Positions 18,199 through 38,684 are shown, counted from the first letter of the stretch. The stretch: DNA of 44,827 nt from an uncultured Oscillospiraceae bacterium (GCA_900544515.1 UQVI01000001.1:1-44827), one strand, 5' to 3'. Notes: a model not told the origin generated them from the sequence alone. Made by a program: numbers and translations.

Positions 18199-18478
18199 TT
18201 AGGCAATAGAGAGTAATCCGAACTCTGGTATAAATTGTCCTATTTGCCCTTATTCTGTGTTAAAAATACTCGGAATACAAAAAGTATTCCTGCGTTTTTG
18301 TGCCTTGATTAAGAACAAATAGGCACAATTTAAACTCGCAGACCCAAAATGTTTGAAGTAAAGATGAATTTTGATTTTTGAGATGGCAGCCTTGCTGACG
18401 CAAGGCAACAGCGAAAACTTCATAAATTCGCTTTAATTCTGCATTTTGGGCAGGTTTAGATTTCTCTCTATTGCCTAA
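18199..18478. repeat. 280-bp structured palindromic element A (outer inverted repeat plus two long hairpin arms); MITE-like or ncRNA
   Basis: Perfect 15-bp IR TTAGGCAATAGAGAG (18199-18213/18464-18478) extending imperfectly inward; arm 1 18231-18332, arm 2 18343-18450. Confidence 0.8.
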
Positions 18479-18499
18479 TGACTGAGAGGGGTAAACATT

Positions 18500-19762
18500 A
18501 TGTCAACTAAAACAAAAACAAAAAAAACACCAAAGCAGCGTTTTAAGATTTTTCTTAAGGTACTGCTTATTATCATTCTGGTTATCGCACTGCTTTGCGG
18601 TATTCTTGCATCTGTTTCAGCGGTTGGTCTGAAATCAAACAGTAATTTCATTGAGACCATTGAGACAGTCAGCTTTGACAATCAGCTTGAGCCGGTGCTG
18701 GATGATAACGGCTGTTATACCTTTACAACAGATGATCATTTTAAAGTGATTCAATTGACTGACGTACATATCGGTGGCGGATTCCTCAGTATAAAAAAGG
18801 ACTCAATGGCAATCAATGCCGTTGCAGCAATGATTACTGCAGAAAAGCCCGACCTTGTTGTTATCACAGGCGATATTGCATATCCTGTTCCATTCCAGGC
18901 AGGTACATTTAACAATAAAACAAGTGCAGAGCTTTTTGCTCAGCTTATGGAAAAGCTTGGTGTTTACTGGGTTCCTGTTTTCGGTAACCACGATACGGAG
19001 GCGTATTCCTATTATTCACGTGAAAAGATTTCAGAATTCTATTCACAGGAAAAGTTTTCTCACTGCCTGTTCCAGGCCGGTCCGGAAGATGTGGATGGTT
19101 ATGGTAACTCAATCATTAATGTGAAGAACACAAAGGGTGAAATTACCCAGAGCCTTGTTATGCTGGATTCCCATTCCTATGTTGATAATGATTATTTCGG
19201 AATTATGTGGAAGTATGATACCATTCATGAAAGTCAGGTGAAATGGTATGAAGATTCCCTCAATAAAATCAAGGCTGAGAACAATGATGTTATGCCGAAA
19301 TCACTTGCATTTTTCCATATTGCAATTCCTGAATACAAAACAGCTTGGGACGAATATAGGGCAAATGATTTTAACGATACAGAAAACGTAAAATATATCT
19401 ATGGTAAAGCTGGTGAAAAGGATTACTCTGTTTACACAAGTGAGTATAATTATGGCTTCTTCGATAAGGTTAAGGAGCTTGGCTCAACACAGGGTATGTT
19501 CTGCGGTCACGACCATCTGAACAATTTTTCAATTGATTATAAGGGTGTTCGCCTGACTTATGGCTATTCCATTGACTACCTTGCATATACCGGAATCATG
19601 AAGTTCGGCTTGCAGAGAGGCTGTACCGTAATTGACATTGCACCTGACGGCAGCTTTGAGTCACACCTTGAAAACTATTATCAGGATAAGTATCAGGCTG
19701 CAAAGGAAAAGGAGCAGGTTGATTTAGTAGGCAATTATCACAGCGAGCTTGATAATCAGTAA
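18500..19762 (+). CDS. Membrane-anchored calcineurin-like metallophosphoesterase (DCR2-like)
   Basis: N-terminal TM; TDVH, TGD, FGNHD, FFHI, CGHDHLN. Confidence 0.88.
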   Translation: MSTKTKTKKTPKQRFKIFLKVLLIIILVIALLCGILASVSAVGLKSNSNFIETIETVSFDNQLEPVLDDNGCYTFTTDDHFKVIQLTDVHIGGGFLSIKKDSMAINAVAAMITAEKPDLVVITGDIAYPVPFQAGTFNNKTSAELFAQLMEKLGVYWVPVFGNHDTEAYSYYSREKISEFYSQEKFSHCLFQAGPEDVDGYGNSIINVKNTKGEITQSLVMLDSHSYVDNDYFGIMWKYDTIHESQVKWYEDSLNKIKAENNDVMPKSLAFFHIAIPEYKTAWDEYRANDFNDTENVKYIYGKAGEKDYSVYTSEYNYGFFDKVKELGSTQGMFCGHDHLNNFSIDYKGVRLTYGYSIDYLAYTGIMKFGLQRGCTVIDIAPDGSFESHLENYYQDKYQAAKEKEQVDLVGNYHSELDNQ

Positions 19763-19769
19763 AAAACAG

Positions 19770-19797
19770 TTGACAAATCACACAAGAGGAATATAAT
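19770..19797 (+). promoter_or_regulatory. Sigma-A promoter of the FMN riboswitch-ribU transcript
   Basis: TTGACA-16bp-TATAAT. Confidence 0.8.
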
Positions 19798-19826
19798 AGT
19801 TATTGCAGACGATAGTCTGACTAAAA

Positions 19827-19943
19827 TATTTTCAGGGCGAGGTGTAATTCCTCACCGGCGGTTACAGTCCGCGACCCATAGCAATATGGCTGAATCGGTG
19901 AAATTCCGATACCGACGGTTAAAGTCCGGATGAGAGAAAATGT
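19827..19943 (+). ncRNA. FMN riboswitch (RFN element)
   Basis: TTCAGGGCGAGGTGTAATTCCTCACCGGCGGT...AGTCCGCGAC...CGGTGAAATTCCGATACCGACGGTTAAAGTCCGGATGAGAGAA consensus. Confidence 0.97.
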
Positions 19944-20003
19944 TTGGCTGATGTTTTATATTTGTATATATTTATAAATTCAGCCTGTGGTCAAAGCATT
20001 TAC

Positions 20004-20038
20004 GCCCTGACGTTTTTCGCGTCAGGGCTTCTCTTTTT
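20004..20038 (+). terminator. FMN riboswitch-controlled terminator
   Basis: GCCCTGACG/CGTCAGGGC stem followed by TTCTCTTTTT; its 5' arm can alternatively pair with aptamer TCAGGGC. Confidence 0.8.
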
Positions 20039-20059
20039 GCCCAATTAAAAGGAGAAAAA

Positions 20060-20716
20060 ATGAAAAACAAAACAAACAGCAAAACAAAAATTCTGACCCT
20101 GACTGCAATGTTCTGTGCATTGGCATTTGCAATGACGGCAGTTATAAGGGTGCCTGTGGTACTGTTCCTTAAATACGACCCTAAGGATATTATCATAGCA
20201 CTGAGCGGCTTTATTCTCGGTCCGCTTTCTGCAGTTGTAGTCAGTGTTATAACGTCCGTAATTGAAATGGTTACCATAAGTGATACAGGTCCTATCGGAT
20301 GCATAATGAACATCATCTCAAGCTGCTCATTTGCTTTCACTGCTGCTCTTATTTATAAAAAGAAAAAAACACTTTCAGGTGCAGCAATCGGCTTGATTGC
20401 GGGCTGTATTGTTCAGGTTGTGATAATGCTTCTTTGGAATTACTGTATTACACCCCTTTATATGGGTTATCCGAGAGAGGCGGTTGCCGAATTGCTCTTG
20501 CCTGCATTTCTACCGTTTAATTTAATTAAAAGTTGTCTTAATGCGGCTTTTGCATTCTTGTTATACAAGCCGATTGTCGGTGCACTGCGCAAAACACATC
20601 TGATTCCTGAAAGCACATCAGAAAAAGCAAAGGCGAATATTCCTATGATTATTATTTCTGCCCTTGTGATTATCACCTGTGTTTTGGTTATTCTTTCAAT
20701 GAATGAAATTATATAA
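20060..20716 (+). CDS. ribU: ECF transporter S component, riboflavin
   Basis: FLKYDPKD, GFILGP, TPLYMG, PFNLIK; multi-TM; downstream of an FMN riboswitch. Confidence 0.9.
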   Translation: MKNKTNSKTKILTLTAMFCALAFAMTAVIRVPVVLFLKYDPKDIIIALSGFILGPLSAVVVSVITSVIEMVTISDTGPIGCIMNIISSCSFAFTAALIYKKKKTLSGAAIGLIAGCIVQVVIMLLWNYCITPLYMGYPREAVAELLLPAFLPFNLIKSCLNAAFAFLLYKPIVGALRKTHLIPESTSEKAKANIPMIIISALVIITCVLVILSMNEII

Positions 20717-20744
20717 CCGAATTAAGGATGAAGTTTCAGAATAG

Positions 20745-20810
20745 TTGACACTTTTGGTATAATGGTTTAAAATAGCTGATATAGCAATATTTGTTATATC
20801 GGCTATTTTT
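20745..20810 (+). promoter_or_regulatory. Sigma-A-like promoter overlapping a long hairpin (probable ribU terminator)
   Basis: TTGACA-17-TAAAAT (20745-20773); hairpin AAAATAGCTGATATAGCAA/TTGTTATATCGGCTATTTT. Confidence 0.55.
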
Positions 20811-20834
20811 GTATATAAATTAGGATGTGAAAAA

Positions 20835-21785
20835 ATGAAGCTTTCATTTGTTGTTCCGTGTTATAATGAAGCAGATAATGTAAAACCATTTGCCGAAGAG
20901 ATATTCAGAAGTTTTCCAGTTACTGAGGATTATGAGATTATATTTGTGAACGACGGTAGTGCAGATAATACCTTTGAAAATTTAAAGGAAGTTAAAAAAA
21001 TCAGTCCCTGCAATATTAAAATCATTGATTTTTCAAGGAATTTCGGTAAAGAGTCTGCAATGTATGCAGGACTTCAGAATGCCTGCGGCGAGCTGGTTTC
21101 CATTATAGATGCTGATTTGCAGCAGGATCCTGCCATAGTTAAAAAAATGATTGAAATGCTTGACTCCAATCCGAATGTCGATTGCATTTGTGCCTGTCAG
21201 GAGGACAGGCATGAGGGTAAATTTACAACAGCGTGCAAAAACGCTTTTTACAAATTTGCTGATAAATTTACGGAAATTTCCTTTAAAAGTGGTGCGTCGG
21301 ATTTCAGAACATTCAGAAAAAGTGTTCGTGATGCTCTGCTTTCAATGGGTGAATTTCACCGTTTTTCAAAAGGGCTTTTCAGTTGGATCGGATTTAATAC
21401 CGTTTATATTCCGTATACTGCAAAGGAGCGTCAGGCAGGCAAAAGCAGTTTTAATTTTATCAAGCTGTTGAAGTATGCATTTGAGGGAATTATCGCGTTT
21501 TCAACCGCACCCCTTAAATTTGCATCTGTATTAGGATCATTTGCAACACTGTTTAGTCTTATATATGCAGTTATAACAATTATCAGGAAACTGGTCAGCC
21601 ACATTAATGTTGACGGCTTTACCCAGCTTGTTATTCTTATCACTTTTATCGGTGGTATTCAGCTGTTTACCATTGGAATTATTGGTGAATATCTTGCCCG
21701 CAATTATATTCAGACAAAGAACAGACCCATTTATATTGCAAAAGAAGTTATAAGTTATGAGGATAATTTGGATTTGAATCATTGA
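20835..21785 (+). CDS. GT2 polyprenol-phosphate glycosyltransferase (GtrB/YkoT-like)
   Basis: VVPCYNE, VNDGS, FSRNFGKE, IDADLQ, RFSKGLFSWIGF, two C-terminal TMs, GEYLAR..RPIY. Confidence 0.92.
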   Translation: MKLSFVVPCYNEADNVKPFAEEIFRSFPVTEDYEIIFVNDGSADNTFENLKEVKKISPCNIKIIDFSRNFGKESAMYAGLQNACGELVSIIDADLQQDPAIVKKMIEMLDSNPNVDCICACQEDRHEGKFTTACKNAFYKFADKFTEISFKSGASDFRTFRKSVRDALLSMGEFHRFSKGLFSWIGFNTVYIPYTAKERQAGKSSFNFIKLLKYAFEGIIAFSTAPLKFASVLGSFATLFSLIYAVITIIRKLVSHINVDGFTQLVILITFIGGIQLFTIGIIGEYLARNYIQTKNRPIYIAKEVISYEDNLDLNH

Positions 21786-21811
21786 TCTTTATTTCTGATT
21801 ATTTCTTTGTC

Positions 21812-21840
21812 TTGACAATGAAACAAAGCGGTGATAGAAT
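21812..21840 (+). promoter_or_regulatory. Sigma-A promoter of the cobalamin riboswitch operon
   Basis: TTGACA-17-TAGAAT with extended -10 TG. Confidence 0.8.
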
Positions 21841-21859
21841 ATAAAAAAATTAAATACAT

Positions 21860-22017
21860 CTGTTTTTCGGTGTTGCTCTTTGAAGCATTCAAGGGGAAGT
21901 TCGGTGAAAATCCGTCGCAACCGCCATTACCGTAATTTGGGATTCATATCTCACTAAGTCGGAATTCCTGCCGGAAAACAGGGTTAACCTGTATACACTT
22001 TTGGGTAAGGAAGAGTG
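21860..22017 (+). ncRNA. Cobalamin riboswitch (compact form)
   Basis: Closing stem CTGTTTTTCGG/CCGGAAAACAG; AAGGGGAA, CGGTGAAAATCCG, GCAACCGCCATTACCGTAA, B12 box AAGTCGGAATTCCTGCC; P13-like hairpin 21996-22017. Confidence 0.88.
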
Positions 22018-22087
22018 CAACCGTTTTATGTAAGTACCGAAGGACAGTTGCATTCTTTTGGCTTTTTTGCTTGCAAAAAATTATGTT

Positions 22088-22126
22088 GCACATTTTTACA
22101 TTTTGTAGAAATGTGCTTTTTTATTT
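22088..22126 (+). terminator. Riboswitch-controlled intrinsic terminator
   Basis: GCACATTTTTACA-TTT-TGTAGAAATGTGC followed by TTTTTTATTT. Confidence 0.8.
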
Positions 22127-22140
22127 GTGGGAGATAAAAA

Positions 22141-22410
22141 ATGAGCAGCAGAATTACAAGAGAAGATTGTATCCTTCTGATACAGCAAAAAACAAATGAA
22201 CTCGGACGTTTTCCTAAAAAGTCTGATTTTGATAATGAAACCGTAAGTATGATTAAATCATACTTCAAAGCCTGGCCGAGAGCGTTGGAAGCTGCCGGAA
22301 TTAAAGAGCCCAATTTTAAAAGAATTGAGCAAAAACGGGAGAAGAGACGCCGCGCTAAGGAAAATCAGATCAGGTACAGAAAAGCACATTCTAAGGAGGA
22401 AAATCAATAA
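22141..22410 (+). CDS. Small basic protein with one homing-endonuclease-associated-repeat-like unit
   Basis: ELGRFPKKSDF...YFKAWPRALEAAGI resembles the LGRxP...FGsWxxALxaAG repeat; GGGAG SD; TAATG coupling to the next gene. Confidence 0.7.
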   Translation: MSSRITREDCILLIQQKTNELGRFPKKSDFDNETVSMIKSYFKAWPRALEAAGIKEPNFKRIEQKREKRRRAKENQIRYRKAHSKEENQ

Positions 22411-25400
22411 TGAAAAAAAGAGTATTATCATTCATACTGGCTGTGGTATTGATAACCTCAATACTGCCGGCGTTTCCTGCTCTGGCCGGTACAGCGTGGG
22501 ATGGCAGTTCAAAGTCAGAGCCGCAGCAGATTGACGGAGTATATCAAATCTCTGACAGTGCACAGCTTGCCTGGTTTGCTGAAAAATCAAAAACGCAGTC
22601 TGATATCAATGCCGTTTTGACAGATGATATTGATCTCGGCGGCAAGGAATGGACACCTATAGGTATGGCTGCAAGCGGATATGTAACTGAATCCTATTCA
22701 GGTACATTTGACGGTCAGGGTCATACCGTGTCAGGCTTGTATATAAATACAAGCAGTGCCTTTTATGGATTTTTTTATTGTGTTTACGGCGGAACAGTGA
22801 AAAACTTAAATGTAATCGGTGATGTTACCACGACTAAAAATACTGCAGGCGGTATTGTAGGAAAGCTTCAGGGGGGAACGGTTGAAAATTGTTCCTTTGA
22901 CGGCAGTGTTAAGGCAAACGGAAATTATGTTGGCGGAATAGTTGCTAATATTGTTACAAACAGCAAAGCCGCATCTGTAATTACCGGCTGCTGTAATTCA
23001 GGAGAGATAAGCGGTAAATATGCCGGAGGAATTCTTGGCTACACCACTGCAAAGGCAGATATAAACAATTGCTATAACACAGGTACAATTAATGGTACAA
23101 CACGCAGTGCCGGTATTTCAGGGCAGCAGACAGCAGGCGCAATAAGCTATTGCTATAATATCGGCAACAGTGCAAGCGGTATCAGTGGCTTCAGTAATGC
23201 TGCCATAACAAACTGCTATTATTTAAATGATGAAACAGCAGCTCCCGGCGGAACAGCCACAGGATATGAAAAGATTACAGATAAAGCAATTTTACTTGAG
23301 AATCTGAACGCAGGAGAAAGTAAGCTTTTTTGTGAGGATATCGGAAATAAAAACAATGGTTATCCTGTTCTGAACTGGCAAAATAAATTATCTCCTGAGG
23401 AAGAGGCTGAAGAACAGAGAAAAAGAGAAAATGCTGAGAAGGTAAAGCAGGCTGTTGAAGCACTTTCTTTGGAAGCACAGACAATAAAGGAAGAATGTAC
23501 ATTAAATCTTCCGTCACAAATCGGTGACTGTACAGTTGAATGGTCAAGTGATAATACCGATATCATTTCCGATGCCGGCATGGTCATTCTCCCTGAAAAA
23601 AATATCGTAACGGTCACACTCACTGCGACTGTTACCTGTGATACTGCAAGCGACAGCAAAAAATTCACCATAAATGTATGGTCAGAAAATATAGATGCAG
23701 ATTTGTATCTGCAGACTGTGCTTGATGCAATGCAGTGGAATTTTAAACAGCTTCAGCCTGTTTACGGTGAAGATACAAATATTATTTTTAAATTTCAGAA
23801 CCTTCTGAAGAGCAAGGGCTTTGACGGTGTAACGGTTAGTATCAAATCCACCTCTGATAAAAGTCTGATTTCTGAAAATGGAAAAATATATTATCCTGTT
23901 AATACAGATAACAGTTACGCAAATGGAAAGCAGGTGCAGGTACAGTTTAATCTGACTGTCGGTGATAAAACAGTTGTATATCCTGATTCGGATATCAATT
24001 CGTTGTTTATTCCCTGGAATACAAGCGATGTAAAAAAAGCGTTGGAAAGCTCTGCCGATACTGTATTAAATGAAAATGAAATCTGTAACGGCAATGGTTC
24101 ACTTGACTTCGTTTTGTCAGATTTGAATCTGCCCTCCTGCATAAGAGGTGATAAATATTCCTTTGCATGGATAACTTGGGAAAGCTCGGACAATACACAC
24201 CTTGCAATAAGCGACGAAAACCGACAGGGCAGTGCGGATGCCTTGTATAATCCATATGTGGGTAAGGTTTATCAGGACAGTCAGCAGCATACTGTTGTAC
24301 TGACAGCAACAATTACAAATCCTTCAACAGATGTTACAGTGAAAAGAGTGTTCGAGGTTACAGTCAATCCGCTGACTGATGAAGAGCTTAATCAGAGCCT
24401 TGATATGATGAAGAAAATTCTGAATTGTTACACTGCCGATAAGCTTGAAAACTTTGCGACAAAGAAAAAGCTGAATATAAATGCTGTTGACAGTGATATT
24501 CAGCTTGTTATTCCAAGCAGGGTTGTAACGGCAGATGAGCTGGAGGCACTGGACTATGGTAAATACTGGGATTACTGGAACTATAAATTTTCCGTCACAA
24601 GCTCAGATACAAGTGTAATTGAGATTAACAGCTTCAGAGCATATGTCTACAGACCACTGGGAGAGGATAGCTCTGCGGATAAAAACATAACGCTCACAGT
24701 GAAAATGGAGAGCAAGCAGAATCCGAATCTTTTTGTAACAAAGGATATTTCGGTTACGATCAAACACCTAAGTCGTGAGGATATCAATAATGCACTCGAT
24801 TTAATGGATCAGGCAAAGACAGGTTATGCTGCCGGTCTGCTTGGTAATAATACGGATTTATACAGTGTTATTGATGATTTAACTCCATATAAGGAAATTG
24901 TCTGGAATCATGATAAATCAGGTGTTGATTTTGTATACCGCCATTCCGACATAAAGGGCAGCGGAATCATTGTGGATGAACTGCCCGGCTGGGAGGAGCA
25001 GGAGGATTGGAGATTATTCCGCACCAGCAATAAGGATTTGGTTTCCAACGAGACACTGATTCTAAATCAGACACCTGACGAGGATACCTTTGTAAAAATC
25101 AACAGTGTGCTTACGGACGAAGCACTCGGTAAATACTATACGAAATTCTGCAATGACAAAAATTATGATGCAGAGGCACTGGCAAAGTTCAGACAGCTTT
25201 ATAAACAGCCTGTAAGTGCATATGTAATGGTTGTGGGTGCAGGCGGTTATACTGACAGCTTTGCAGCTATGCCTGAAACACTTAAGGCAGCTTCGTACAG
25301 TGCAAAATTATCTGCATTCAAAACGGAGCTGGATAAGCCTATCCGTGTAACCTTTACCCTTTTGGGACTTGACGGTGTGCCGATGATTTCCAAAACAACA

Positions 25401-26147
25401 GAGGATTCATTTACGAAGGGTGCAACTGTTTTTGATATATTTAAAAAGGTTCTTTCAGATAATAATATGTTTTATGTATCAAAGGGCAGTTATATTTCAT
25501 CCATAAACGGTCTTGCAGAAAAGGACTACGGCAGCAGTTCCGGCTGGATGTATACCGTAGGAAATGTTTTTGTGAATTCCTATATGAATGCGCAGGAGCT
25601 TTCAGGCGGCGAAGATATTGTTGTTATGTATGTGAGGGATTATAAGGATGCCAACAAGCAGCTTGATAACAATAATAGCAATAATAACAACAATAATAAC
25701 GTCAATAACAGTAATAACGCACAGAATACAGATAAGAATACCATAGGGAATGAGAAGCCTGCTGAGAATCAGAGCTCACAGAACAAGCAGAACACAAACC
25801 AGTCAGGTAGCAGTAATCGTTCCGATAATGTTGTAAATAACAGCACAAATAAAAGCAGTGTTACTGCCAATACAAATGGAAGCAAAGCAGGTGATACTGC
25901 CAAGCAGAATCAGAACATTGTAAAAACAGAAGGCGATAATCCTTCAAATCAAAATGAAAACAGCAATTCAGATGCTTTGGATAAGAACGTAAAAGACAGT
26001 CAAGAGAAGAACAGTACTCAGGATAATACTCCTGAAAAGGCAAGCAATAAGCTGCCGATTATTATCGGAGCAGCTGCAGCGATTCTTCTGCTCGCACTGA
26101 TTGTAATTTTCATTGTATTGAAAAAACGTAAGGACAGTGATAAATAA
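22410..26147 (+). CDS. Large cell-surface protein: signal peptide, GLUG-like repeats, Ig-like modules, DUF4430/transcobalamin-like domain, Asn-rich linker, C-terminal TM anchor
   Basis: MKKRVLS signal; YSGTFDGQGHTVSGL and GGIVG repeats; LP...WSSDN...LTATVT Ig modules; YISSINGLAEKDYGSSSGWMYTV; TM followed by KKRK. Confidence 0.82.
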   Translation: MKKRVLSFILAVVLITSILPAFPALAGTAWDGSSKSEPQQIDGVYQISDSAQLAWFAEKSKTQSDINAVLTDDIDLGGKEWTPIGMAASGYVTESYSGTFDGQGHTVSGLYINTSSAFYGFFYCVYGGTVKNLNVIGDVTTTKNTAGGIVGKLQGGTVENCSFDGSVKANGNYVGGIVANIVTNSKAASVITGCCNSGEISGKYAGGILGYTTAKADINNCYNTGTINGTTRSAGISGQQTAGAISYCYNIGNSASGISGFSNAAITNCYYLNDETAAPGGTATGYEKITDKAILLENLNAGESKLFCEDIGNKNNGYPVLNWQNKLSPEEEAEEQRKRENAEKVKQAVEALSLEAQTIKEECTLNLPSQIGDCTVEWSSDNTDIISDAGMVILPEKNIVTVTLTATVTCDTASDSKKFTINVWSENIDADLYLQTVLDAMQWNFKQLQPVYGEDTNIIFKFQNLLKSKGFDGVTVSIKSTSDKSLISENGKIYYPVNTDNSYANGKQVQVQFNLTVGDKTVVYPDSDINSLFIPWNTSDVKKALESSADTVLNENEICNGNGSLDFVLSDLNLPSCIRGDKYSFAWITWESSDNTHLAISDENRQGSADALYNPYVGKVYQDSQQHTVVLTATITNPSTDVTVKRVFEVTVNPLTDEELNQSLDMMKKILNCYTADKLENFATKKKLNINAVDSDIQLVIPSRVVTADELEALDYGKYWDYWNYKFSVTSSDTSVIEINSFRAYVYRPLGEDSSADKNITLTVKMESKQNPNLFVTKDISVTIKHLSREDINNALDLMDQAKTGYAAGLLGNNTDLYSVIDDLTPYKEIVWNHDKSGVDFVYRHSDIKGSGIIVDELPGWEEQEDWRLFRTSNKDLVSNETLILNQTPDEDTFVKINSVLTDEALGKYYTKFCNDKNYDAEALAKFRQLYKQPVSAYVMVVGAGGYTDSFAAMPETLKAASYSAKLSAFKTELDKPIRVTFTLLGLDGVPMISKTTEDSFTKGATVFDIFKKVLSDNNMFYVSKGSYISSINGLAEKDYGSSSGWMYTVGNVFVNSYMNAQELSGGEDIVVMYVRDYKDANKQLDNNNSNNNNNNNVNNSNNAQNTDKNTIGNEKPAENQSSQNKQNTNQSGSSNRSDNVVNNSTNKSSVTANTNGSKAGDTAKQNQNIVKTEGDNPSNQNENSNSDALDKNVKDSQEKNSTQDNTPEKASNKLPIIIGAAAAILLLALIVIFIVLKKRKDSDK

Positions 26148-26199
26148 TTAATTAAAATACAGCAGGGAAAGCATATCTTATCTCTGCTGCATTTTATTA

Positions 26200-26228
26200 T
26201 TGATATTTGACTTCGTTTGTAGTATAAT
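26200..26228 (+). promoter_or_regulatory. Sigma-A promoter of fba
   Basis: TTGATA-17-TATAAT. Confidence 0.65.
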
Positions 26229-26267
26229 ATCCAAGTAAAAAATTAATTTTATATAGGAGATGTAATT

Positions 26268-27209: not shown

Positions 27210-27228
27210 TTAAAATAATAAGATGAAG

Positions 27229-27273: not shown

Positions 27274-27277
27274 GCAG

Positions 27278-30548: not shown

Positions 30549-30568
30549 TCCAAATAAATAATAAAAAC

Positions 30569-30603
30569 AATGAAAGAATAATCTTGTGATTATTCTTTCA
30601 TTT
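30569..30603 (+). terminator. Hairpin/terminator after the AICAR transformylase gene
   Basis: 15-bp stem AATGAAAGAATAATC/GATTATTCTTTCATT. Confidence 0.65.
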
Positions 30604-30619
30604 GCTATAGGTGATAATT

Positions 30620-31375
30620 ATGAAAATGATTTCATGGAATGTTAACGGTTTGCGTGCATGTATGAATAAGGATTTTGAAGTTTTCTTTAACGATATTGAT
30701 GCGGATATCTTCTGCCTGCAGGAAACCAAGCTGCAGGAGGGTCAGATTGATTTTTCCCCTGAGGGTTATAACTGCTATTGGAACTATGCCGAGAAAAAAG
30801 GATATTCAGGTACTGCCATATTTACCAAGAAAAAGCCTGTCAGTGTGAAGTACGGTATGGGTATTGAGGAACACGATAAAGAGGGCAGACTTATTACGCT
30901 TGAATTTGAGAATTTCTATTTTGCCACAGTTTATGTTCCCAATTCTCAGAGGGAACTGAAAAGGCTGGACTATCGTATGCAGTGGGAAAATGATTTCAGA
31001 GACTATATTCTCACTCTCGAAAGAGCAAAGCCTGTTATTTTCTGCGGTGATTTGAATGTGGCACATAAGGAAATTGATTTGAAAAATCCTAAGACCAACC
31101 ATAAGAACGCAGGTTTTACTGATGATGAAAGGGAAAAGCTGACCCTGATGCTTGACAGTGGCTTTACCGATTCTTTCAGATTTTTCTATCCTGATGCTGA
31201 GGGCATTTACAGCTGGTGGTCCTATATGTTCAAGGCAAGGGAAAAGAATGCAGGTTGGAGAATTGATTATTTCATAACATCAAAAGCACTTGATGATAAG
31301 CTTGAAGATGCTAAAATTCATACCGATATTTTCGGCTCTGACCATTGCCCTATCGAGCTTGATATTAACATTTAA
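30620..31375 (+). CDS. xth: Exodeoxyribonuclease III / AP endonuclease
   Basis: SWNVNGLRA, CLQETK, GYSGTA, CGDLNVAH, GWRIDY, GSDHCP. Confidence 0.96.
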   Translation: MKMISWNVNGLRACMNKDFEVFFNDIDADIFCLQETKLQEGQIDFSPEGYNCYWNYAEKKGYSGTAIFTKKKPVSVKYGMGIEEHDKEGRLITLEFENFYFATVYVPNSQRELKRLDYRMQWENDFRDYILTLERAKPVIFCGDLNVAHKEIDLKNPKTNHKNAGFTDDEREKLTLMLDSGFTDSFRFFYPDAEGIYSWWSYMFKAREKNAGWRIDYFITSKALDDKLEDAKIHTDIFGSDHCPIELDINI

Positions 31376-31391
31376 TTTTATGAGGTAAACT

Positions 31392-32174
31392 ATGTCCATT
31401 CTTATTTGTCCTGTGTGTAATGAAAAACTGAATAAAACAGGCAATTCCTTGAAATGCACCAATCATCATTCCTTTGATTTTTCAAAGGAGGGGTATGTCA
31501 ATCTGCTTTTAGGTTCAAAAAACGGTGATAAAACAGGTGATAGCAAGGATTCTGCAAGGGCACGTCACACACTACTTGCAAAGGAATATTATTCCTGCCT
31601 TAAAAATTATCTTAAGGAAAAGATGCAGGGCACTGTTCTTGATATCTGCTGCGGTGAGGGGTATTATGATGATTATGAGGGCGAACTTTATGGCTTTGAC
31701 ATCAGCAAGGAAATGATACGTCTTGCCTCAAAGAGTAAAAAAGATAACCATTATTTCATTGCGAATTTATCCTCCATTCCTGTTGAGAGTGAAAGCGTGG
31801 ATACGGCGCTTCATCTTTTTGCCCCGTTTAATGAAAAGGAATTCTCAAGGGTGCTTAAGAAAGACGGAACACTTTATTCCGTAGTCGGAGGTGAAAATCA
31901 TTTGTGGGAGATGAAAGAGCTTATCTATGACACCCCTTATAAAAATGATGAACAGCCGCCGAAAACAGAGAACCTTAAGCTGATATCAAAAACAAAGGTC
32001 AGCGACAGGGTGAAAATACCGCAGGAGGACTTGAAAACACTTTTTTCAATGACGCCCTATTTTTACAGAACGAGTGAAAAGGATAAGACAAAGCTGAATG
32101 ATGTAAGCGAGCTTCTGCTGACAGTGGAATTTGTAATTTTTGAATATAAAAAGGAAGAGATTAGCAATGGATAG
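31392..32174 (+). CDS. RlmA-like 23S rRNA m1G methyltransferase
   Basis: N-terminal CPVC...C..HSFD zinc site, GYVNLL, LDICCGEGYY, MTPY. Confidence 0.85.
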   Translation: MSILICPVCNEKLNKTGNSLKCTNHHSFDFSKEGYVNLLLGSKNGDKTGDSKDSARARHTLLAKEYYSCLKNYLKEKMQGTVLDICCGEGYYDDYEGELYGFDISKEMIRLASKSKKDNHYFIANLSSIPVESESVDTALHLFAPFNEKEFSRVLKKDGTLYSVVGGENHLWEMKELIYDTPYKNDEQPPKTENLKLISKTKVSDRVKIPQEDLKTLFSMTPYFYRTSEKDKTKLNDVSELLLTVEFVIFEYKKEEISNG

Positions 32175-32346
32175 CCTTTGTGAAAAATGCTGGTATAACG
32201 AGTATGATGACGAGACGGATGAGAGCTTTTGCTCCCTTGTCCTTGATGAGGATGAATACGTCCGCCTGATGCAGGAACAGAATAAATCCTGCCGATACTT
32301 CCGTCCTGACGGCAGTGAATATGATATTGTAAGGAAGCAGAATTAA
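32167..32346 (+). CDS. Small Cys/acidic protein (DUF6472-like)
   Basis: CxxCxYxxYDxExDxxxC...LDEDE...C.YF...EY.IVRKQ pattern; start moved to ATG 32167. Confidence 0.7.
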   Translation: MDSLCEKCWYNEYDDETDESFCSLVLDEDEYVRLMQEQNKSCRYFRPDGSEYDIVRKQN

Positions 32347-32766
32347 ATGAAAAAGTCAAAACGGAATATAATACTCGTATTTTGTGTTGTGTTGATAATC
32401 GCTTTTGTTTGTTGTGCTATTTCCATATTTCATTATAATGCAAAGGAATATATGTTAAAGGTTACAGATATTATGTGGTATGCACCGGAAGAGTGTGATA
32501 CACAAGTAAGAGAATTGAAAGCGCGTAAGGATGATATAATTCAGTCAATATCACCCGGATATGAAGATGTAGCCTTTGAAATTATAAAGGTATCAGAAAA
32601 ATCAATTACAGTGAAATCCAATCAGCCATTGAGTATTCTGAAAGAGAATAAGAAGATTAATTTGGATAGCAACGAAACAGAGTTTGTGATAAATAGAGGA
32701 GAAAAAATTCAGTTGCATACACCCACCTTCGATGGCGGAGGATGTTGGGAAATAGAGTTTGAATAA
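32347..32766 (+). CDS. Hypothetical N-terminally anchored protein
   Basis: Basic N-terminus plus hydrophobic helix, 139 aa, AT-rich. Confidence 0.65.
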   Translation: MKKSKRNIILVFCVVLIIAFVCCAISIFHYNAKEYMLKVTDIMWYAPEECDTQVRELKARKDDIIQSISPGYEDVAFEIIKVSEKSITVKSNQPLSILKENKKINLDSNETEFVINRGEKIQLHTPTFDGGGCWEIEFE

Positions 32767-32794
32767 TTTATTGTTAATATTGAGGAAATTTATT

Positions 32795-33637
32795 ATGAAC
32801 CGACTTTTAATTGTTGACGGTAATAATCTGTTGTTTCAGATGTTTTTCGGTATGCCTGCGAGAATCGTAAATGAACAGGGTAAAGCAATTCAGGGAACAC
32901 TGGGATTTACAGGTGCGTTATTGAAAATAATTCGCAAAACGAATCCAACACACATTGCAGTATTTTTTGACGGAGAACACGAAAATAATCGCACCGCTTT
33001 TAATCCCGATTACAAGGCAAACAGAATGGATTACAGTGAAGTTCCTGAACAGGACAACCCTTTTTCACAGCTTAATGATGTTTATGATGCACTTGATTAT
33101 CTTGGTATAAAGCATACTGAAACCATAAACTGTGAAGCGGATGATTTAATTGCAGGTTATGCGCTGACATACGGACAGGAGAATGAAATTATCATTTCAT
33201 CATTTGACAGTGACTTTTTTCAGTTGATAACAAATCATGTATCTGTACTCAGATATCGCGGTGATAAAACAGTAATCTGTACACCTGATTATATAAAGGA
33301 AAAATTCGGCATCGTACCGTCGCAATATGCGGATTTTAAATCCCTTGTCGGTGATGTATCTGATAATATTAAGGGAGCAGATAAGATTGGTCCTAAAACA
33401 GCGGCATTACTTCTGAATGAGTTTGGCACTTTGCAGAATATTCTTATAAATGCAGATGAGATAAAGAGACCGTCAATCAGAGAATCTGTAACCAGAAATT
33501 CCGAAAGGTTGAAAATGAATTATAAAATTATCCGGCTTGACAATTCAGCATTGCTGCCATTTGAAATCAGTGAACTTAAATATACTTTTACTGAAATAAC
33601 GACAAATGAGGTATTAAAGGGTATAGGCTTAAAGTAA
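32795..33637 (+). CDS. Stand-alone 5'-3' exonuclease / flap endonuclease (Pol I N-terminal domain-like)
   Basis: LIVDGNN, VFFDG, YKANR, EADDLI, SSFDSDF, LVGDVSDNIKG..IGPKTA; start moved to ATG 32795 behind GAGG. Confidence 0.9.
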   Translation: MNRLLIVDGNNLLFQMFFGMPARIVNEQGKAIQGTLGFTGALLKIIRKTNPTHIAVFFDGEHENNRTAFNPDYKANRMDYSEVPEQDNPFSQLNDVYDALDYLGIKHTETINCEADDLIAGYALTYGQENEIIISSFDSDFFQLITNHVSVLRYRGDKTVICTPDYIKEKFGIVPSQYADFKSLVGDVSDNIKGADKIGPKTAALLLNEFGTLQNILINADEIKRPSIRESVTRNSERLKMNYKIIRLDNSALLPFEISELKYTFTEITTNEVLKGIGLK

Positions 33638-33673
33638 AATTATATAATAATAAAAAATACCTTACGTAACCTA

Positions 33674-33704
33674 TTGCTTGTTACGCTGCGTAATGCCTTA
33701 CAAT
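33674..33704 (+). promoter_or_regulatory. MerR-type promoter with 19-bp spacer and dyad operator
   Basis: TTGCTT-19bp-TACAAT with TTACGC-T-GCGTAA (33681-33693) inside the spacer. Confidence 0.7.
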
Positions 33705-33730
33705 AGGGACTGTAAGGAGGTGAAAGACTT

Positions 33731-34450
33731 ATGTCAAAATACACAACAGGAGAAATGGCTAAGCTTTGCAATGTTACTGTGCGCACGGTTCAGTACTATG
33801 ATACAAGGGGAATACTCATTCCTGCCCAGCTGAGCGAAGGCGGCAGAAGGCTTTACAATGATGATGATTTGAAAAAGCTGCGGCTCATCTGTTATCTTAA
33901 GAATATAGGCTTATCCCTTGACAGCATTGCCGATATACTGACTGCTGAAAATGGTAAAAATGTTATTTCTACCATTCTTCAGGAGCAGAGGGCACAGCTG
34001 AAAAATGATATTGAACAGCAAAAGGAAAGCCTTAAGGAGATTGACGGCTTTTTGAATGAGCTTGAAAGCTGCAGGTCATTTTCTGTTGAATCTATAAAAG
34101 ACATAGTAAATTTTATGGAGAACAGGCAATCGCTGAAAAATCTGCATATAAAAATGATTCTGGTAGGACTTGTTGTGGATGCTATTGAGATTTCAACAAT
34201 TGTTCTCTGGATTGTTAAAGGAATATGGATTCCTTTTGCAGTCGGAATGGTAATCGTTGTTCTTCTCGTTTCGTGGATATTTAATGTTTACTGCAAAAAT
34301 GTAGCATATATTTGTCCTGAATGCCACGAGATTTTCAAGCCGGAAAAAAAGGAAATGTTTTTTGCAAAGCATACACCGAAAACAAGGAAGCTCACATGCA
34401 CCCATTGCGGTCACAAAAGTTACTGCGTTGAGGTAGGAAATAAACAATAA
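33731..34450 (+). CDS. MerR-family regulator with two TM helices and C-terminal zinc ribbon
   Basis: YTTGEMAKLCNVTVRTVQYYD...GGRRLY HTH; hydrophobic segments; CPECH...CTHCG. Confidence 0.9.
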   Translation: MSKYTTGEMAKLCNVTVRTVQYYDTRGILIPAQLSEGGRRLYNDDDLKKLRLICYLKNIGLSLDSIADILTAENGKNVISTILQEQRAQLKNDIEQQKESLKEIDGFLNELESCRSFSVESIKDIVNFMENRQSLKNLHIKMILVGLVVDAIEISTIVLWIVKGIWIPFAVGMVIVVLLVSWIFNVYCKNVAYICPECHEIFKPEKKEMFFAKHTPKTRKLTCTHCGHKSYCVEVGNKQ

Positions 34451-34454
34451 TAAA

Positions 34455-34485
34455 ACACCCTATAGTCAATTTGACTATAGGGTGT
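34455..34485. terminator. Hairpin between convergent merR and LCP genes, probable bidirectional terminator
   Basis: ACACCCTATAGTCAA-T-TTGACTATAGGGTGT. Confidence 0.75.
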
Positions 34486-34490
34486 AAATT

Positions 34491-35816
34491 TTATTTATCT
34501 GAATTTTCGTCAGCATTTATGTCGTCGGAGCTTTTATTATAGATATAGTCTGTCAGCATTTGCTTATTCTCTTCTGTATTTATGCTGATAACACTGTTTC
34601 CCCTGATTGTGGCGTAATCCCATGTGCCCTCAAATGGTACTTTTGTCTGGTGCATATCACCGGTGATACAAAAGGCAGCCTGCATTACAAAGCTCATCAG
34701 CTCGCCCTTGCTCATATCTGTTTCAATATAAGGTGCTGATTTGTAAGCCATATTGTATAATCTGAATGGGCTTGAGTGCTTTGCACTGGTAAGGATTGCA
34801 CTCATAACCGTACGCTGTCTTTCTGTTCGCACAAAGTCGGTGTCAATCTTTCTGATACGGCAGTAGGCAAGAGCCTGTTCACCACTGAGCTTGTACTTAC
34901 CTGAATCAAGCTTTACGTGATCGTAGCGATAAGGGTGGCTTGTTACTTCCTTTGCCTCTGCTTCGGTAACATCAACCTCAACACCGCCGAGACTATCCAC
35001 AAGCACCTTGAACATTTCAAAATCAACAACGGCATAACCGTCAATGTCAATGCCGAAATTGTACTCGATTGCATCCACAACGCCCTGATATCCGCCTGAT
35101 GAACAAGCGGCATTCAGGCGCTGTTCGCCCTCAAGTGCAGGAATATATACCCAAGTGTCTCGCAAAAAAGATACCATTTTAATGCAGTGGTGCTTCATAT
35201 CAAGCGATACCAGCATCATCGTGTCAGAACGTGTTTGTTCAGCATTTTCACCGGTACGTGCATCAACACCCAGCAGCAGGATATTTTTAACCATTGCACT
35301 GCTTTCGAGAGAATCGGCAGCAGCAAATTTATTTTCCTGCTTCTCGTTATAGTTTATTCTGCCCATAGCTACGGAGACGGAGCCGACGATAATAAGCACC
35401 AGTACAAGAATAAATACAAGTATGCTTTTACCTACAGATAGATGTGGCAGTTTGCCCTTTTTCTTTGGCGGCTTATCAGATCGGTTTTTGTGCGTCTTTT
35501 TCTGCCTGTCCGCCTTGTTTTGTTCAGGTTTCTGCGGGCTCTGATGACCGAAGAAATCATTTACCGTCTCGCTTCTGAAACGCTGCGGCTGCTCAGTATT
35601 ATTCACATATGGCCGTGAAAAATCATCACAGGGGTTGATTCCGCTTTCTCTTCTTTGATTATCCTGTACCACATTTTCATTTTTCTGTCTGTTATTAAAA
35701 TTTAAGTCAATCGGATTGTAACCGTAAAAATTTTCCTCTTCAGGGACAGTTCTGTCAATATCACGGTTACGGTTTCTTCTTTCGGGATTAAAGCCTTCAT
35801 TTTCAAAACGAGGCAT
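34491..35816 (-). CDS. LytR-CpsA-Psr (LCP) family protein
   Basis: Long polar N-terminus, TM, NILLLGVD, RSDTMML, SFLRD, RLNAA, ALAYCRIR, RTERQR. Confidence 0.93.
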   Translation of the reverse strand: MPRFENEGFNPERRNRNRDIDRTVPEEENFYGYNPIDLNFNNRQKNENVVQDNQRRESGINPCDDFSRPYVNNTEQPQRFRSETVNDFFGHQSPQKPEQNKADRQKKTHKNRSDKPPKKKGKLPHLSVGKSILVFILVLVLIIVGSVSVAMGRINYNEKQENKFAAADSLESSAMVKNILLLGVDARTGENAEQTRSDTMMLVSLDMKHHCIKMVSFLRDTWVYIPALEGEQRLNAACSSGGYQGVVDAIEYNFGIDIDGYAVVDFEMFKVLVDSLGGVEVDVTEAEAKEVTSHPYRYDHVKLDSGKYKLSGEQALAYCRIRKIDTDFVRTERQRTVMSAILTSAKHSSPFRLYNMAYKSAPYIETDMSKGELMSFVMQAAFCITGDMHQTKVPFEGTWDYATIRGNSVISINTEENKQMLTDYIYNKSSDDINADENSDK

Positions 35817-35883
35817 CGAATCACCTCCACAGATATATTACTGCATAACGTTATTAATTTCAACTAACAATTTGTAAATAATA

Positions 35884-35912
35884 TTGACAATAAAAGTTAA
35901 GTCCTATAAAAT
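35884..35912 (+). promoter_or_regulatory. Sigma-A promoter of rnpB
   Basis: TTGACA-17-TAAAAT just upstream of the P1 helix. Confidence 0.8.
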
Positions 35913-35917
35913 AGATA

Positions 35918-36250
35918 TGCGAGTTGGCTTGGCAGTTGCGTATTGCTTTGCAATATGAGGAAAGTCCGAGCAGCACAGAGCAGGATGACGGCTAACGGCC
36001 GCCGAGGGTGACCTTAGGGAAAGTGCAACAGAAATATACCGCCTCTTATGAGGTAAGGGTGGAAAGGCGAGGTAAGAGCTCACCGAGAGAGTGGAGACAT
36101 TCTCTGCCATGTAAACCCCATCCGCTGCAACATCGACTAAAGGGTTGTTTGCTCGACACATAACTTTGAAGGATGGCTGGAGCGCTGGAGCAATTCAGCG
36201 TCGAGATAGATAATTGCCCATGACAGAACTCGGCTTACTGCCAACTCGCA
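35918..36250 (+). ncRNA. rnpB: RNase P RNA, bacterial type A
   Basis: P1 TGCGAGTTGGC/GCCAACTCGCA; GAGGAAAGTCC, GAAAGTGCAACAGAAA, GGTAAGAG, TAAACCCC, AGATAGATAAT, ACAGAACTCGGCTTA. Confidence 0.97.
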
Positions 36251-36452
36251 CTAAATTGCGTCTTTTTCCGTTATGCGTCGTTTTGTCAAAACAAATTTCG
36301 CATTTAAACAAATTGCTATGCAATATGAAACAAATGCTTCATTGTTTATCCTCTTCCCAAAAAGCTAATGCTTTTTAGGAACCCTGATTTAATTCCGCCC
36401 GGAAATTTGGTAATAAAATAATTTAATTATATTCATAAATGAGGTAATAAAA

Positions 36453-37295
36453 ATGCTTGTAAATATGAGCTCTCTTCTGGAGGATGCACAGAAGGGGAAT
36501 TATGCAGTCGGCTCGTTTTCCGTTGCAAATATGGAAATGGTGCTTGGCGTGCTTAAGGCAGCAAAGGAGCTTAATGCCCCTGTAATTTTACAGATTGCTG
36601 AAGTAAGATTAAAACAGAGTCCGCTGGAGATAATCGGTCCTTTAATGGTTGCGGCTGCTGAAAATGCAGATACGCCGGTGGCTGTTCATTTTGATCACGG
36701 CAAGACGCTTGAAAAAATCGGTCAGGCTCTGGACTTAGGCTTCACGTCTGTTATGTTTGACGGCTCACATCTTTCCCTTGATGAAAACATTGAGATGACC
36801 AAAAAGGTTATGGAAATGGCAGCAGAATATGATGCTGATGTTGAGGCGGAAATAGGTTGTGTAGGCGGTTCTGAGGACGGCTCTGAGGATATTGCCATTA
36901 ACTGTACAAAGGTGGAGGATGCCGTACGTTTTGAGGCGGAGACAAATGTTGATGCCCTTGCAATTGCAATTGGCAATGCACACGGCAATTACAAAAGCAC
37001 GCCGAAGCTCAGATTTGATATTCTTGAAGAGGTGGAGAAGAATACGGATTTACCGCTTGTTCTTCACGGCGGTACAGGTATTACTCCTGATGATTTTGTA
37101 AGGTGTTCACATACAGGAATCAAGAAAATAAATATTGCCACAGCTACCTTTGATATGGTTGAAAACACCGTTCATAAGTGCTATAATGAGGACAGCATTA
37201 AGGGGTATTACGATTTACAGGCTGCTGAGGTTGAGGGTGCTTATCAGAATGCGAAAAAGCACATACTCATTTTCGGAACAGATAATAAAGCGTAA
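36453..37295 (+). CDS. iolJ: Class II aldolase, probably 6-phospho-5-dehydro-2-deoxy-D-gluconate aldolase
   Basis: VHFDHG, VMFDGS, AIGNAHG, VLHGGTG, KINIAT; adjacent to iolC; housekeeping fba is present separately. Confidence 0.72.
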   Translation: MLVNMSSLLEDAQKGNYAVGSFSVANMEMVLGVLKAAKELNAPVILQIAEVRLKQSPLEIIGPLMVAAAENADTPVAVHFDHGKTLEKIGQALDLGFTSVMFDGSHLSLDENIEMTKKVMEMAAEYDADVEAEIGCVGGSEDGSEDIAINCTKVEDAVRFEAETNVDALAIAIGNAHGNYKSTPKLRFDILEEVEKNTDLPLVLHGGTGITPDDFVRCSHTGIKKINIATATFDMVENTVHKCYNEDSIKGYYDLQAAEVEGAYQNAKKHILIFGTDNKA

Positions 37296-37324
37296 TATCA
37301 CATTATATATAAGAGGTAAAATTT

Positions 37325-38341
37325 ATGAAATATATTGAATTTGATATGTCAAAGCCACTTGACTTTATCCCAATCGGCAGAATTGCGATTGATTTTAATC
37401 CCACCGATATGTATATGCCGCTCAGCCAGTCCTCTAATTTTAACAAATATGTAGGCGGCTCACCTGCGAATATTGCTGTCGGTCTTGCAAGACTTGGTTG
37501 CAAGGTTGGATTCTGCGGCTGCGTAAGTAATGATCAGTTCGGTGATTTTGTTGTGGATTACTTTGATAAAGAGGGTATTGACACAAGTCAGATTACAAGA
37601 GCTAAGAACGGCGAAGGTCTCGGCCTTACATTTACTGAGATTCTTTCAAAGGAAAAGTCCTCAATCCTTATGTACCGTGACAATGTTGCAGATTTCTGCA
37701 TGGCTCCTGAGGATATCAAGGAGGAGTATATCGCATCAGCAAAGGCTATTGTTATCAGCGGTACTGCTCTTGCGCAGTCTCCTTCACGTGAGGCCTGCCT
37801 TAAGGCAATGATGCTTGCGAAGAAGAATAATGTAAGAATTATTTTTGACATTGATTATCGTGAATATACTTGGAAATCAAAGGATGAAATCGCTGTTTAT
37901 TACAGCCTTGTTGCTCAGAATGCGGATATCATTATGGGCTCAAGAGAGGAATTTGATTTAACTGAGGGTATTGTTGGTGTTAAGGATTCTGACCCTGAGT
38001 CTGCTAAATATTGGCAGTCCTTTGGTGCGGCAATCTGCGTTATCAAGCACGGCAAGGAAGGCTCAACCGCTTATACAAACGATGGCAAATTCTATTCAAT
38101 CAAGCCTTTCCCTGCTGTTAAGCTTAAAGGCTTCGGTGGTGGTGACGGCTACGGCTCATCCTTCCTTTACAGCCTTTTACAGGGTAAGGAGATTATCGAG
38201 TGCCTTGAGTTCGGCTCAGCATCTGCATCAATCCTTATTTCTGCTCATTCCTGTTCAGATGCTATGCCGTCTGCAAAGCAGGTTGAGGATTTCATCAGAA
38301 AGAGCAAGGAAGAATACGGCGAAATGGTAGCCAGAGTTTAA
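37325..38341 (+). CDS. iolC: 5-dehydro-2-deoxygluconokinase (PfkB family)
   Basis: IGRIAIDFN, YVGGSPANIA, SGTALAQSPSREA, FDIDYR, KHGKEGS, GFGGGDG, HSCSDAMP. Confidence 0.92.
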   Translation: MKYIEFDMSKPLDFIPIGRIAIDFNPTDMYMPLSQSSNFNKYVGGSPANIAVGLARLGCKVGFCGCVSNDQFGDFVVDYFDKEGIDTSQITRAKNGEGLGLTFTEILSKEKSSILMYRDNVADFCMAPEDIKEEYIASAKAIVISGTALAQSPSREACLKAMMLAKKNNVRIIFDIDYREYTWKSKDEIAVYYSLVAQNADIIMGSREEFDLTEGIVGVKDSDPESAKYWQSFGAAICVIKHGKEGSTAYTNDGKFYSIKPFPAVKLKGFGGGDGYGSSFLYSLLQGKEIIECLEFGSASASILISAHSCSDAMPSAKQVEDFIRKSKEEYGEMVARV

Positions 38342-38380
38342 TAAAATACCGTTAAATTTAAAATCGTTTAGATAAAAATT

Positions 38381-38684
38381 GACCTGCTGATTTTAGCTGA
38401 GGTACGGTAACGAAGTATTGGTTTTTCGCAGAAATTGCCTGAAATACAGCCAAAAAGCCTCGCAAGACGCAAGTCTTGCTGCGATTTTAAGCAATATTTA
38501 CAGACGAATTTCCTAAGCTACAAAACTGCGAAGCACTTAAAATTGTTAGATTTTTAGTTAGAATAAGGCATAAAAATACCATAAGGCTGACGCCTTATGG
38601 TATTTTTTAACGCAATTATAGCTGAAAAGATAATGATTTTAAGCAACACTTCGTTATCGCGCCTCAGCTTTATGTCAGCAGGTC
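38381..38684. repeat. 304-bp structured palindromic element B (outer inverted repeat plus two long hairpin arms); MITE-like or ncRNA
   Basis: About 40-bp imperfect IR 38381-38420/38644-38684 starting GACCTGCTGA/TCAGCAGGTC; arm 1 ~38425-38532; arm 2 38536-38643 with a perfect 16-bp tip stem. Confidence 0.82.

Follow-up and report, generated by a model that had tools for sequence, protein, structure and literature searches.

The window analysed here is a stretch of 44,827 nucleotides from an uncultured Oscillospiraceae bacterium (GCA_900544515.1 UQVI01000001.1:1-44827), and it carries two non-coding elements, A (18199-18478) and B (38381-38684 as first delimited). Most probably, they represent two families of non-autonomous DNA transposons ~280 nt long, i.e., MITEs (miniature inverted-repeat transposable elements), which belong to one superfamily in an order of gut and rumen Clostridia. 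An earlier reading of the sequence alone (the sequence-only reading) had offered a MITE, folded single-stranded DNA (ssDNA) or a structured RNA as options. Among these, the MITE is favoured because the elements are multi-copy and possess terminal inverted repeats, and because insertions of A are polymorphic and come with a duplicated TA target; a discrete non-coding RNA gene finds no support as the principal reading. A search of Rfam for an existing family gave no match to A or B even at E up to 10, the best sub-threshold match in B scoring 21.3 bits against a gathering score of 128. Likewise, no prior description of these elements was met in the literature searched, and within that limited collection, with ISfinder outside its scope, the superfamily appears to be uncatalogued.

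The mobility of A is evident from the comparison of strains. Two A sites that are filled in this genome, with TA on both sides, are empty in other strains and hold one TA each, an outcome that answers the comparison of empty sites proposed earlier. Hence, A is a mobile element with a TA target duplication. A complete A copy was also present at a different locus in one metagenome run. Contigs of four gut-metagenome runs were compared with the window over 16500-20500. Their matches start at 18476, the first position of the right TA of the duplicated target (18476-18477), in 4/4 runs, and are preceded there by ...AAATCAAGCAAAATTTTTAGT, the left flank of the C160 A copy. On the other side, long contigs cease matching in 3/4 runs at 18201, the last position of the left TA (18200-18201), and pass into the flank of another A site; the one continuation among the rows shown, that of X7, is the right flank of the C145 A copy with one mismatch. 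The parts of the window to the left and right of A are therefore not neighbours in those strains, and the junction in the window reflects either recombination between two A copies in this strain or a chimeric contig join through the repeat.

Element A proper is a copy of repeat family A of 274 nt (18202-18475; GGCAATAG...CTATTGCC), delimited by the copies in its own genome, the empty sites in other strains and an alignment of 28 copies. Its terminal inverted repeats (18199-18223 and 18454-18478) are 25 nt long and 88% complementary in an inverted-repeat search; their outer ~14 nt are hypervariable between subfamilies and the inner AATCCGAAC is kept. They enclose two long hairpins recovered in both RNA and DNA folds, namely arm 1 (18228-18335), whose helix 2 shows compensatory changes in 10/23 pairs, and arm 2 (18343-18450), in which helices 3-6 covary and the tip reads GCCTTGC-TGAC-GCAAGGC (18389-18406). 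Within arm 1 lies a conserved, asymmetric core hairpin module, GTTAAAAATACTC-stem-loop-stem-TGCG-TTTTTGTGCC (18255-18306, plus strand), which was scored terminator-like on both strands by a simple terminator scan.

For B, the coordinates 38381-38684 required correction. The two-armed element is present as described, and its outer 10 bp (GACCTGCTGA/TCAGCAGGTC) belong to the stem of a host terminator, the alignment of copy ends having set the repeat unit at 38393-38671. Element B proper is a copy of repeat family B of 275 nt (38395-38669; AGCTGAGG...CCTCAGCT), defined by three 99%-identical copies together with 11 left and 12 right ends, and is flanked by TT on both sides (38393-38394 and 38670-38671). 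The terminal inverted repeats of B (38395-38423 and 38641-38669) are 29 nt long and 83% complementary in the inverted-repeat search. A and B thus defined are 274-279 nt in size, and an ORF scan found no open reading frame (ORF) of at least 80 aa inside either of them.

The common architecture attributed to the two elements, an outer stem closing two long arms in a Y shape, was recovered in each. The RNA fold of A reaches -107 kcal/mol vs -57.9 +/- 4.8 for shuffled sequences (z -10.2), with 0/200 shuffles as good, and that of B (38381-38684) reaches -126.4 vs -63.9 +/- 4.6 (z -13.6; 0/100). DNA parameters give the same shapes (z -9.95 for A and -9.07 for B), and the two strands fold about equally well. 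All the strings on which the sequence-only reading had built its comparison are in place, including the arm 1 tips (18262-18299 in A and 38452-38488 in B) and the shared arm 2 tip GCTGACGC (18394-18401 and 38586-38593). The 7-bp stems of the arm 1 tips indeed differ by exactly two compensatory pairs.

Further copies were found as two dispersed families in the own genome, a 235-contig, 1.83-Mb assembly that is 96% complete. By BLAST, family A is represented by one complete copy, 9 contig-end pieces and 3 internal partials at 91-97% identity, and family B by three complete copies (99%), two rearranged copies and 16 contig-end pieces. A third related family, C, is TA-flanked, has at least 15 terminal-repeat matches in the same genome and in its full form is two-armed and ~290 nt long, and D is a fourth. 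A-like copies occur in 13/24 other genomes of the genus and B-like copies in 6/24; full-length B-like copies at 68-69% identity are also present in G028, a genome from another family of the order. Among the matches listed (80 of 117 stretches), nearly every public record with the A core is a metagenome-assembled genome (MAG) from gut or rumen, labelled Eubacterium sp., Clostridia, Ruminococcaceae or Oscillospiraceae. The A copies aligned (28 from 13 species) are nearly all TA-flanked. Copies of the A family lie in either orientation relative to neighbouring genes. A single-linkage cluster which joined A with B was rejected as evidence of homology, as the link arose only through the adjacency of different repeats. 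One 48-nt 'mini-A' (C27:7346-7397; locus L070, 2270-2322) consists of the two terminal repeats only and seems to have arisen through internal deletion at a GGTT microhomology; beside it lies an IS3-family remnant (C27:6577-6771) whose rve part is broken by a stop.

The fold of the A family is maintained by compensatory change. In 25 sequences from 13 species, both-side changes occur in 48/82 predicted pairs, and 95.9% of the paired cells can pair vs 81.8% in shuffles and 33-46% with the partners slid; none of 500 shuffles attains any of the five measures. Kinship among the copies inflates these figures, and it is retained by the slid-partner controls. All stems, the terminal repeats included, keep pairing in this manner. 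In this larger alignment, the stems covary strongly, and covariation recurs in a set of 24 core hairpins described below. Three otherwise normal copies carry insertions of 45-50 nt inside the core hairpin. In L224 (7535-7746) and L229 (736-947), both from the complete genome G159, the insertion is in the loop; in L068 (G002:C19) it is at the foot of the upper stem, on the 5' side. These insertions recall the entry of B into hairpin loops, which is taken up further below.

The relation between A and B could not be read from primary sequence, as BLASTN at word size 7 gives no alignment of the two at E up to 10. The link is the core hairpin, which is common to families A, B, C and D and to elements of other species. 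Its consensus runs GTTAAAAAT[A/G]CTC, then a stem of 7-8 bp closing a loop of free sequence, and after the complementary half of the stem TG[C/T]G and TTTTTG(T)GCC. The stem differs from family to family (GGAATAC, GCAAGAC, GCAAAGC, GTTAATCC, GCAAGGC, GCCAAAC and GGCATAC), the loops vary freely and a T.G position is conserved in 19/24 sequences. In the 24 diverse instances, 5/14 pairs covary (19 cells), vs 1-4 pairs and 1-6 cells with slid partners. With B-type sequences excluded, 19 core hairpins served to train a covariance model, R2, which was searched with filters off against the window and 19 loci (79.8 kb); E-values from these models are rough. Within the window, R2 matches only arm 1 of A, which is a training sequence (71.7 bits; 69.6 bits with a further model, R1), arm 2 of B on the minus strand (32.1 bits, E 1.2e-5) and arm 1 of B on the plus strand (26.7 bits, E 3e-4, over 38453-38488), and everything else scores at most 13.5 bits (E 0.66 or worse). 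With R1, the module of B arm 1 (38445-38495, plus strand) scores 50.9 bits and that of B arm 2 (38565-38615, minus strand) 29 bits (E 0.0055).

Since a model free of B-type sequences matches the window only at arm 1 of A and the arms of B, the two elements have in common an asymmetric hairpin module of ~50 nt that is homologous between them. B holds two copies of it in inverted orientation and A holds one that is recognisable, arm 2 of A being matched by neither model. The suggestion that arm 1 of A reappears reversed in arm 2 of B is borne out by the minus-strand matches of both models, and the wider claim that A and B belong to one structured family with a kept fold and covarying stems finds support in the R2 matches and the covariation. 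Both arms of the B-like elements of G028 are matched by R2, elements of G005 hold both module types, and R1 recovers family D, which had been left out of model building. In a sample of the order, R1 found the module in 17/150 other genomes and 10/30 families, with up to 31 matches per genome, many of them at contig ends. In the complete genome G159, the module occurs in a TA-flanked, single-arm MITE of ~165 nt, whose terminal repeat has 85 matches vs 3 for a control pattern. The module has no match in viral contigs or phage records; plasmids gave one match, in a Subdoligranulum variabile record, where a ~150-nt MITE-like stretch is set between two long ORFs.

B shows a marked choice of target. 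It lies between convergent ORFs (37325-38341, plus strand, and 38697-39035, minus strand), in a host terminator-like hairpin of which the left half, an A-run with GACCTGCTGA (38381-38390), spans 38375-38390 and the right half, TCAGCAGGTC (38675-38684) with a T-run, spans 38675-38690; this outer inverted-repeat pair holds an uninterrupted 10-bp flank stem. In the three complete copies, the flanks pair uninterrupted over 10, 17 and 18 bp, with A-runs before and T-runs after the stems. For 8/11 left flanks of B there is a right flank with which they pair uninterrupted over 6-18 bp, vs a usual best run of 2-4 bp over the whole set of 143 left-right pairs. The B-like copies of G028 sit in hairpin loops likewise (3/3). 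By crude ORF calls, ORFs point toward B at 9/11 left and 10/12 right ends. The B copies sit in loops of hairpins that resemble terminators, and the genes on either side are mostly convergent. An unsplit hairpin with the same stem as the flank of the window's B is found at C50:10751, and it is a paralogous hairpin, not an orthologous empty site. Two more B copies (C18/C101 and the start of C50) share the GACCTGCTGA outer stem and about 14-24 nt of flank; either B was recopied together with the host hairpin, or the hairpin is itself a small repeat.

Several observations weigh against the MITE interpretation. The pattern of conservation in the A family, with an interior that is 74-92% conserved and with an outer ~14 nt of both terminal repeats that vary widely yet remain complementary, is the reverse of the usual MITE pattern; what is kept at the ends is the flanking TA and the inner AATCCRAAC. 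In the copy G016:C19, the outer repeat is perfectly complementary and was met nowhere else in the genus (101 genomes). A recombinase with a 2-bp TA crossover would likewise leave one TA at an empty site. The flanks of B are mostly TT/TT, with TA/TA in one pair and TG/TT in another. A scan of metagenomes for the unsplit hairpin found no empty B site, and the orthologous loci in relatives, at most 85-87% identical, have unrelated terminators and no empty site; a target duplication by B is thus putative.

To these is added the failure to find a moving enzyme. The window encodes no cognate enzyme, as had been noted at the outset, and no autonomous parent with matching ends was found in the own genome, the genus sample, five MITE-rich genomes or G159. 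The IS630-type domain DDE_3 (PF13358) was matched in 0/81 genus genomes and 0/5 MITE-rich genomes, NF033545 (NCBIfam IS630) gave nothing above cut-off in five genomes, PF13586 (IS427-type DDE_Tnp_1_2) was found in 0/25 genus genomes, and PF01609 (DDE_Tnp_1) and PF01797 (Y1_Tnp) had no match in the own genome. PF01609 was not found in G020 either. The rve domain (PF00665) is represented by the IS3 remnant in the own genome and elsewhere by IS3 or IS30 types with unrelated ends. Similarly, no pair among the 85 terminal-repeat matches of G159 encloses a transposase gene, and six regions between widely spaced matches hold housekeeping-type genes. A TnpB candidate (PF07282) in the own genome was discarded, its one weak match being a zinc-ribbon membrane protein. 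NF033551 (IS1182) was above cut-off in 1/5 B-bearing genomes (G061), with fragments below cut-off in G044; descent of B from the IS1182 family was rejected, the own genome holding no IS1182 gene and the ends of the IS1182 copies of G159 and G061 being unlike those of B. The breadth of these screens ranged from one family over 81 genomes to the others over 1 to 41, and the negatives are weak evidence of absence because the genomes screened are mostly MAGs, which lose multi-copy insertion sequences (IS), plasmids and phages. The matching autonomous element is often missing for accepted bacterial MITEs as well (PMC2229807).

If A and B are MITEs, their transposition would be catalysed in trans by an enzyme missing from this assembly. 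The TA duplication would point to a staggered 2-nt cut, as in DDE transposases of the IS630/Tc1-mariner type. The module may be bound by the moving enzyme or by some host factor, or it may be an insulator resembling a terminator that was passed on from the parent element's ends. Pairing within a strand, as a cruciform or a folded single strand, may matter at some step, and this proposal would account for both terminal repeats changing together. A bolder version, which we hold to be a doubtful but not negligible possibility, is that the mover belongs to a kind of enzyme so far unconnected with transposition in these bacteria, which reads the folded structure (the module and the closed outer stem) instead of the terminal-repeat sequence and cuts TA or TT in unpaired or palindromic DNA, for instance in extruded terminator loops. 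If true, such an enzyme would explain together the covarying hypervariable repeats, the one-off perfect copy, the insertions into hairpin loops and the lack of a matched transposase family in the genomes screened.

Much of the same evidence bears on the idea that the elements are folded ssDNA moved by a structure-reading enzyme (HUH/Y1, of the RAYT or IS200/IS605 type, or other), which would recognise the module and the closed outer stem, and not the terminal-repeat sequence, and insert in unpaired DNA such as extruded hairpin loops. Every stem, terminal repeats included, is kept paired by compensatory change, the hypervariable outer repeats stay complementary down to the unique perfect pair, and the module is asymmetric with its T.G position conserved. 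The location of B in hairpin loops, the small insertions within the module hairpin of L068, L224 and L229, and the empty DDE screens (PF13358, PF13586, NF033545) agree with it too. On the other hand, PF01797 has no match in the own genome, and TA stands on both sides of A; to our knowledge, IS200/IS605-type elements make no target duplication. G-U and A-C cells occur in similar numbers, 27 v 22 for the outer stem and 6 v 8 for arm 1, both strands fold equally well, and the terminal-repeat matches of G159 with 0-1 mismatch fall on both strands (16 plus, 20 minus) with no replichore pattern by eye. Movement of this kind is judged improbable.

Still less probable is a primary role at the RNA level, as a 3'-untranslated-region stabiliser, terminator or small RNA present in many copies, whose mobility would be incidental. 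The strong covariation of the A family, the core hairpin of A that is terminator-like on both strands and the replacement of a terminator between convergent genes by B would all suit such a role, and other bacterial MITEs are described as acting on mRNA as RNA structures (PMC2229807). Arm 2 of A has 39 G-U vs 3 A-C cells, a strand skew that is a hint at most, being inflated by a structure predicted on the same strand and by related copies, and 22 of the 39 are one conserved U.G pair. Against it stand the terminal repeats, the TA duplication and the presence/absence polymorphism, which are DNA-level traits, as well as the lack of an Rfam match and the freely varying core loops. A discrete RNA gene is further spoken against by the copies facing both ways relative to genes, and the G-U and A-C counts of the outer stem and arm 1 give no clear strand signal in its favour. 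That A and B are unrelated palindromes with motifs common by chance among AT-rich hairpins is scarcely credible, for in spite of the missing BLASTN alignment and the unmatched arm 2 of A, the B-free model matches both arms of B and of the G028 elements with nothing else in the window above 13.5 bits, and the G005 elements carry both module types.

As regards its surroundings, A lies between ORFs on the same strand (17238-18131 and 18500-19762), 11 nt downstream of the upstream gene's terminator-like hairpin, which is outside A (18149-18187, plus strand; a 16-nt inverted repeat with 94% complementarity). The next start codon follows 21 nt after A. Other RNAs on the plus strand of the window are an FMN (flavin mononucleotide) riboswitch at 19824-19945 (117.8 bits), a cobalamin riboswitch at 21851-21989 (45.9 bits) and a class A RNase P RNA at 35920-36252 (274.9 bits). 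The own genome (G000) holds further short palindromic families that lack the core module, namely family F, ~110 nt long (TATCGTAGGGACGG...), and a family of ~180 nt; they are represented on C146:2204-2334, C199, C193, C51 and C37:8620-8740 and on C29:8606-8787, C78, C155 and C223. Repeats of ~350-450 nt on C2, C37 and C116 may hold a small gene. Most contig ends, including those of the window (1-63 and 44770-44827), carry CTGTCTCTTATACACATCT and after it either CCGAGCCCACGAGAC or GACGCTGCCGACGA; in a self-BLAST, each finds some 100-170 partners. We take these ends to be Illumina Nextera (Tn5 mosaic-end) adapter read-through, which would be an assembly artefact ending most contigs.

Among biological causes, the repeats are a main reason why assemblies of this MAG lineage break, and adapter read-through breaks still more. 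The A copy of the window misleads synteny, since the two halves of this contig are not neighbours in other strains. With B copies that are 99% identical and A sites that are polymorphic, these make a tractable example of recently active MITEs in genomes almost free of visible transposases, and their mover, once found, could reveal a new transposase specificity or a structure-guided mechanism. The module is conserved across an order, and one family enters terminator loops precisely; such insertions may reshape transcript 3' ends in abundant gut and rumen Clostridia.

Several known systems offer partial parallels. Correia (NEMIS) elements of Neisseria, from another phylum, make a TA duplication and function as hairpins in RNA or as terminators. 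IS1397 and ISKpn1, also outside this phylum, insert into the loops of REP sequences, IS1397 being an autonomous IS3-family element that enters palindromic-unit loops. RUP (repeat unit of pneumococcus) and the IS630-linked MITEs, which together with the CIR repeats come nearest, resemble A and B in being small, non-coding and bounded by terminal inverted repeats, with many intergenic copies. RUP is 107 bp long, inserts at TA and has terminal repeats matching IS630-Spn1 (PMC2229807). The TA flanks of A, of family C and of the G159 family are RUP-like. The elements here, however, have two arms and a length of ~280 nt, most flanks of B are TT, and no IS630-type transposase was found in the 81 genus and five MITE-rich genomes. 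The CIR repeats of Caulobacter and Brucella are described as two long inverted repeats with a predicted RNA structure of two arms and a linker, conserved across genera and with a GANTC methylation motif at the loop (PMC2229807). Compared by description only, their two-armed form is alike and the bacterial lineage is different.

REP/REPIN sequences with RAYT are dispersed palindromes which are reported to keep their hairpins in within-genome evolution and to move, in all likelihood, as folded DNA (PMC3116915, PMC8266576), the REPs being 20-40 bp with a GTAG or CGTC tag (PMC3733652). The hairpin-keeping evolution is shared with A and B, whereas the size of ~280 nt, the absence of a GTAG/CGTC tag at the hairpin feet in the alignments, the lack of PF01797 in the own genome and the TA duplication of A are not. 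Similarly, A and B differ from IS200/IS605 elements in their terminal inverted repeats, in the TA duplication of A and in the same lack of PF01797. In G159, an IS1182-family element of 1573 bp is present in 17 copies (C1, L236-L241; NF033551, 440 bits). In the L236 copy, as seen in 30-nt flanks, a whole ~25-bp terminator hairpin (AGAGAAGATGTTTTATATCTTCTCT) is directly repeated on both sides, and in five further copies the flanks (15 nt) are mutually complementary. For IS1272 of the same family, a study names inverted-repeat or stem-loop structures downstream of genes as the targets and states that the target repeat is replaced and no duplication is left (PMC5678879). The targeting of terminator hairpins is thus common to IS1272/IS1182 and B, with the difference that B sits in the loop and both halves of the stem are kept.

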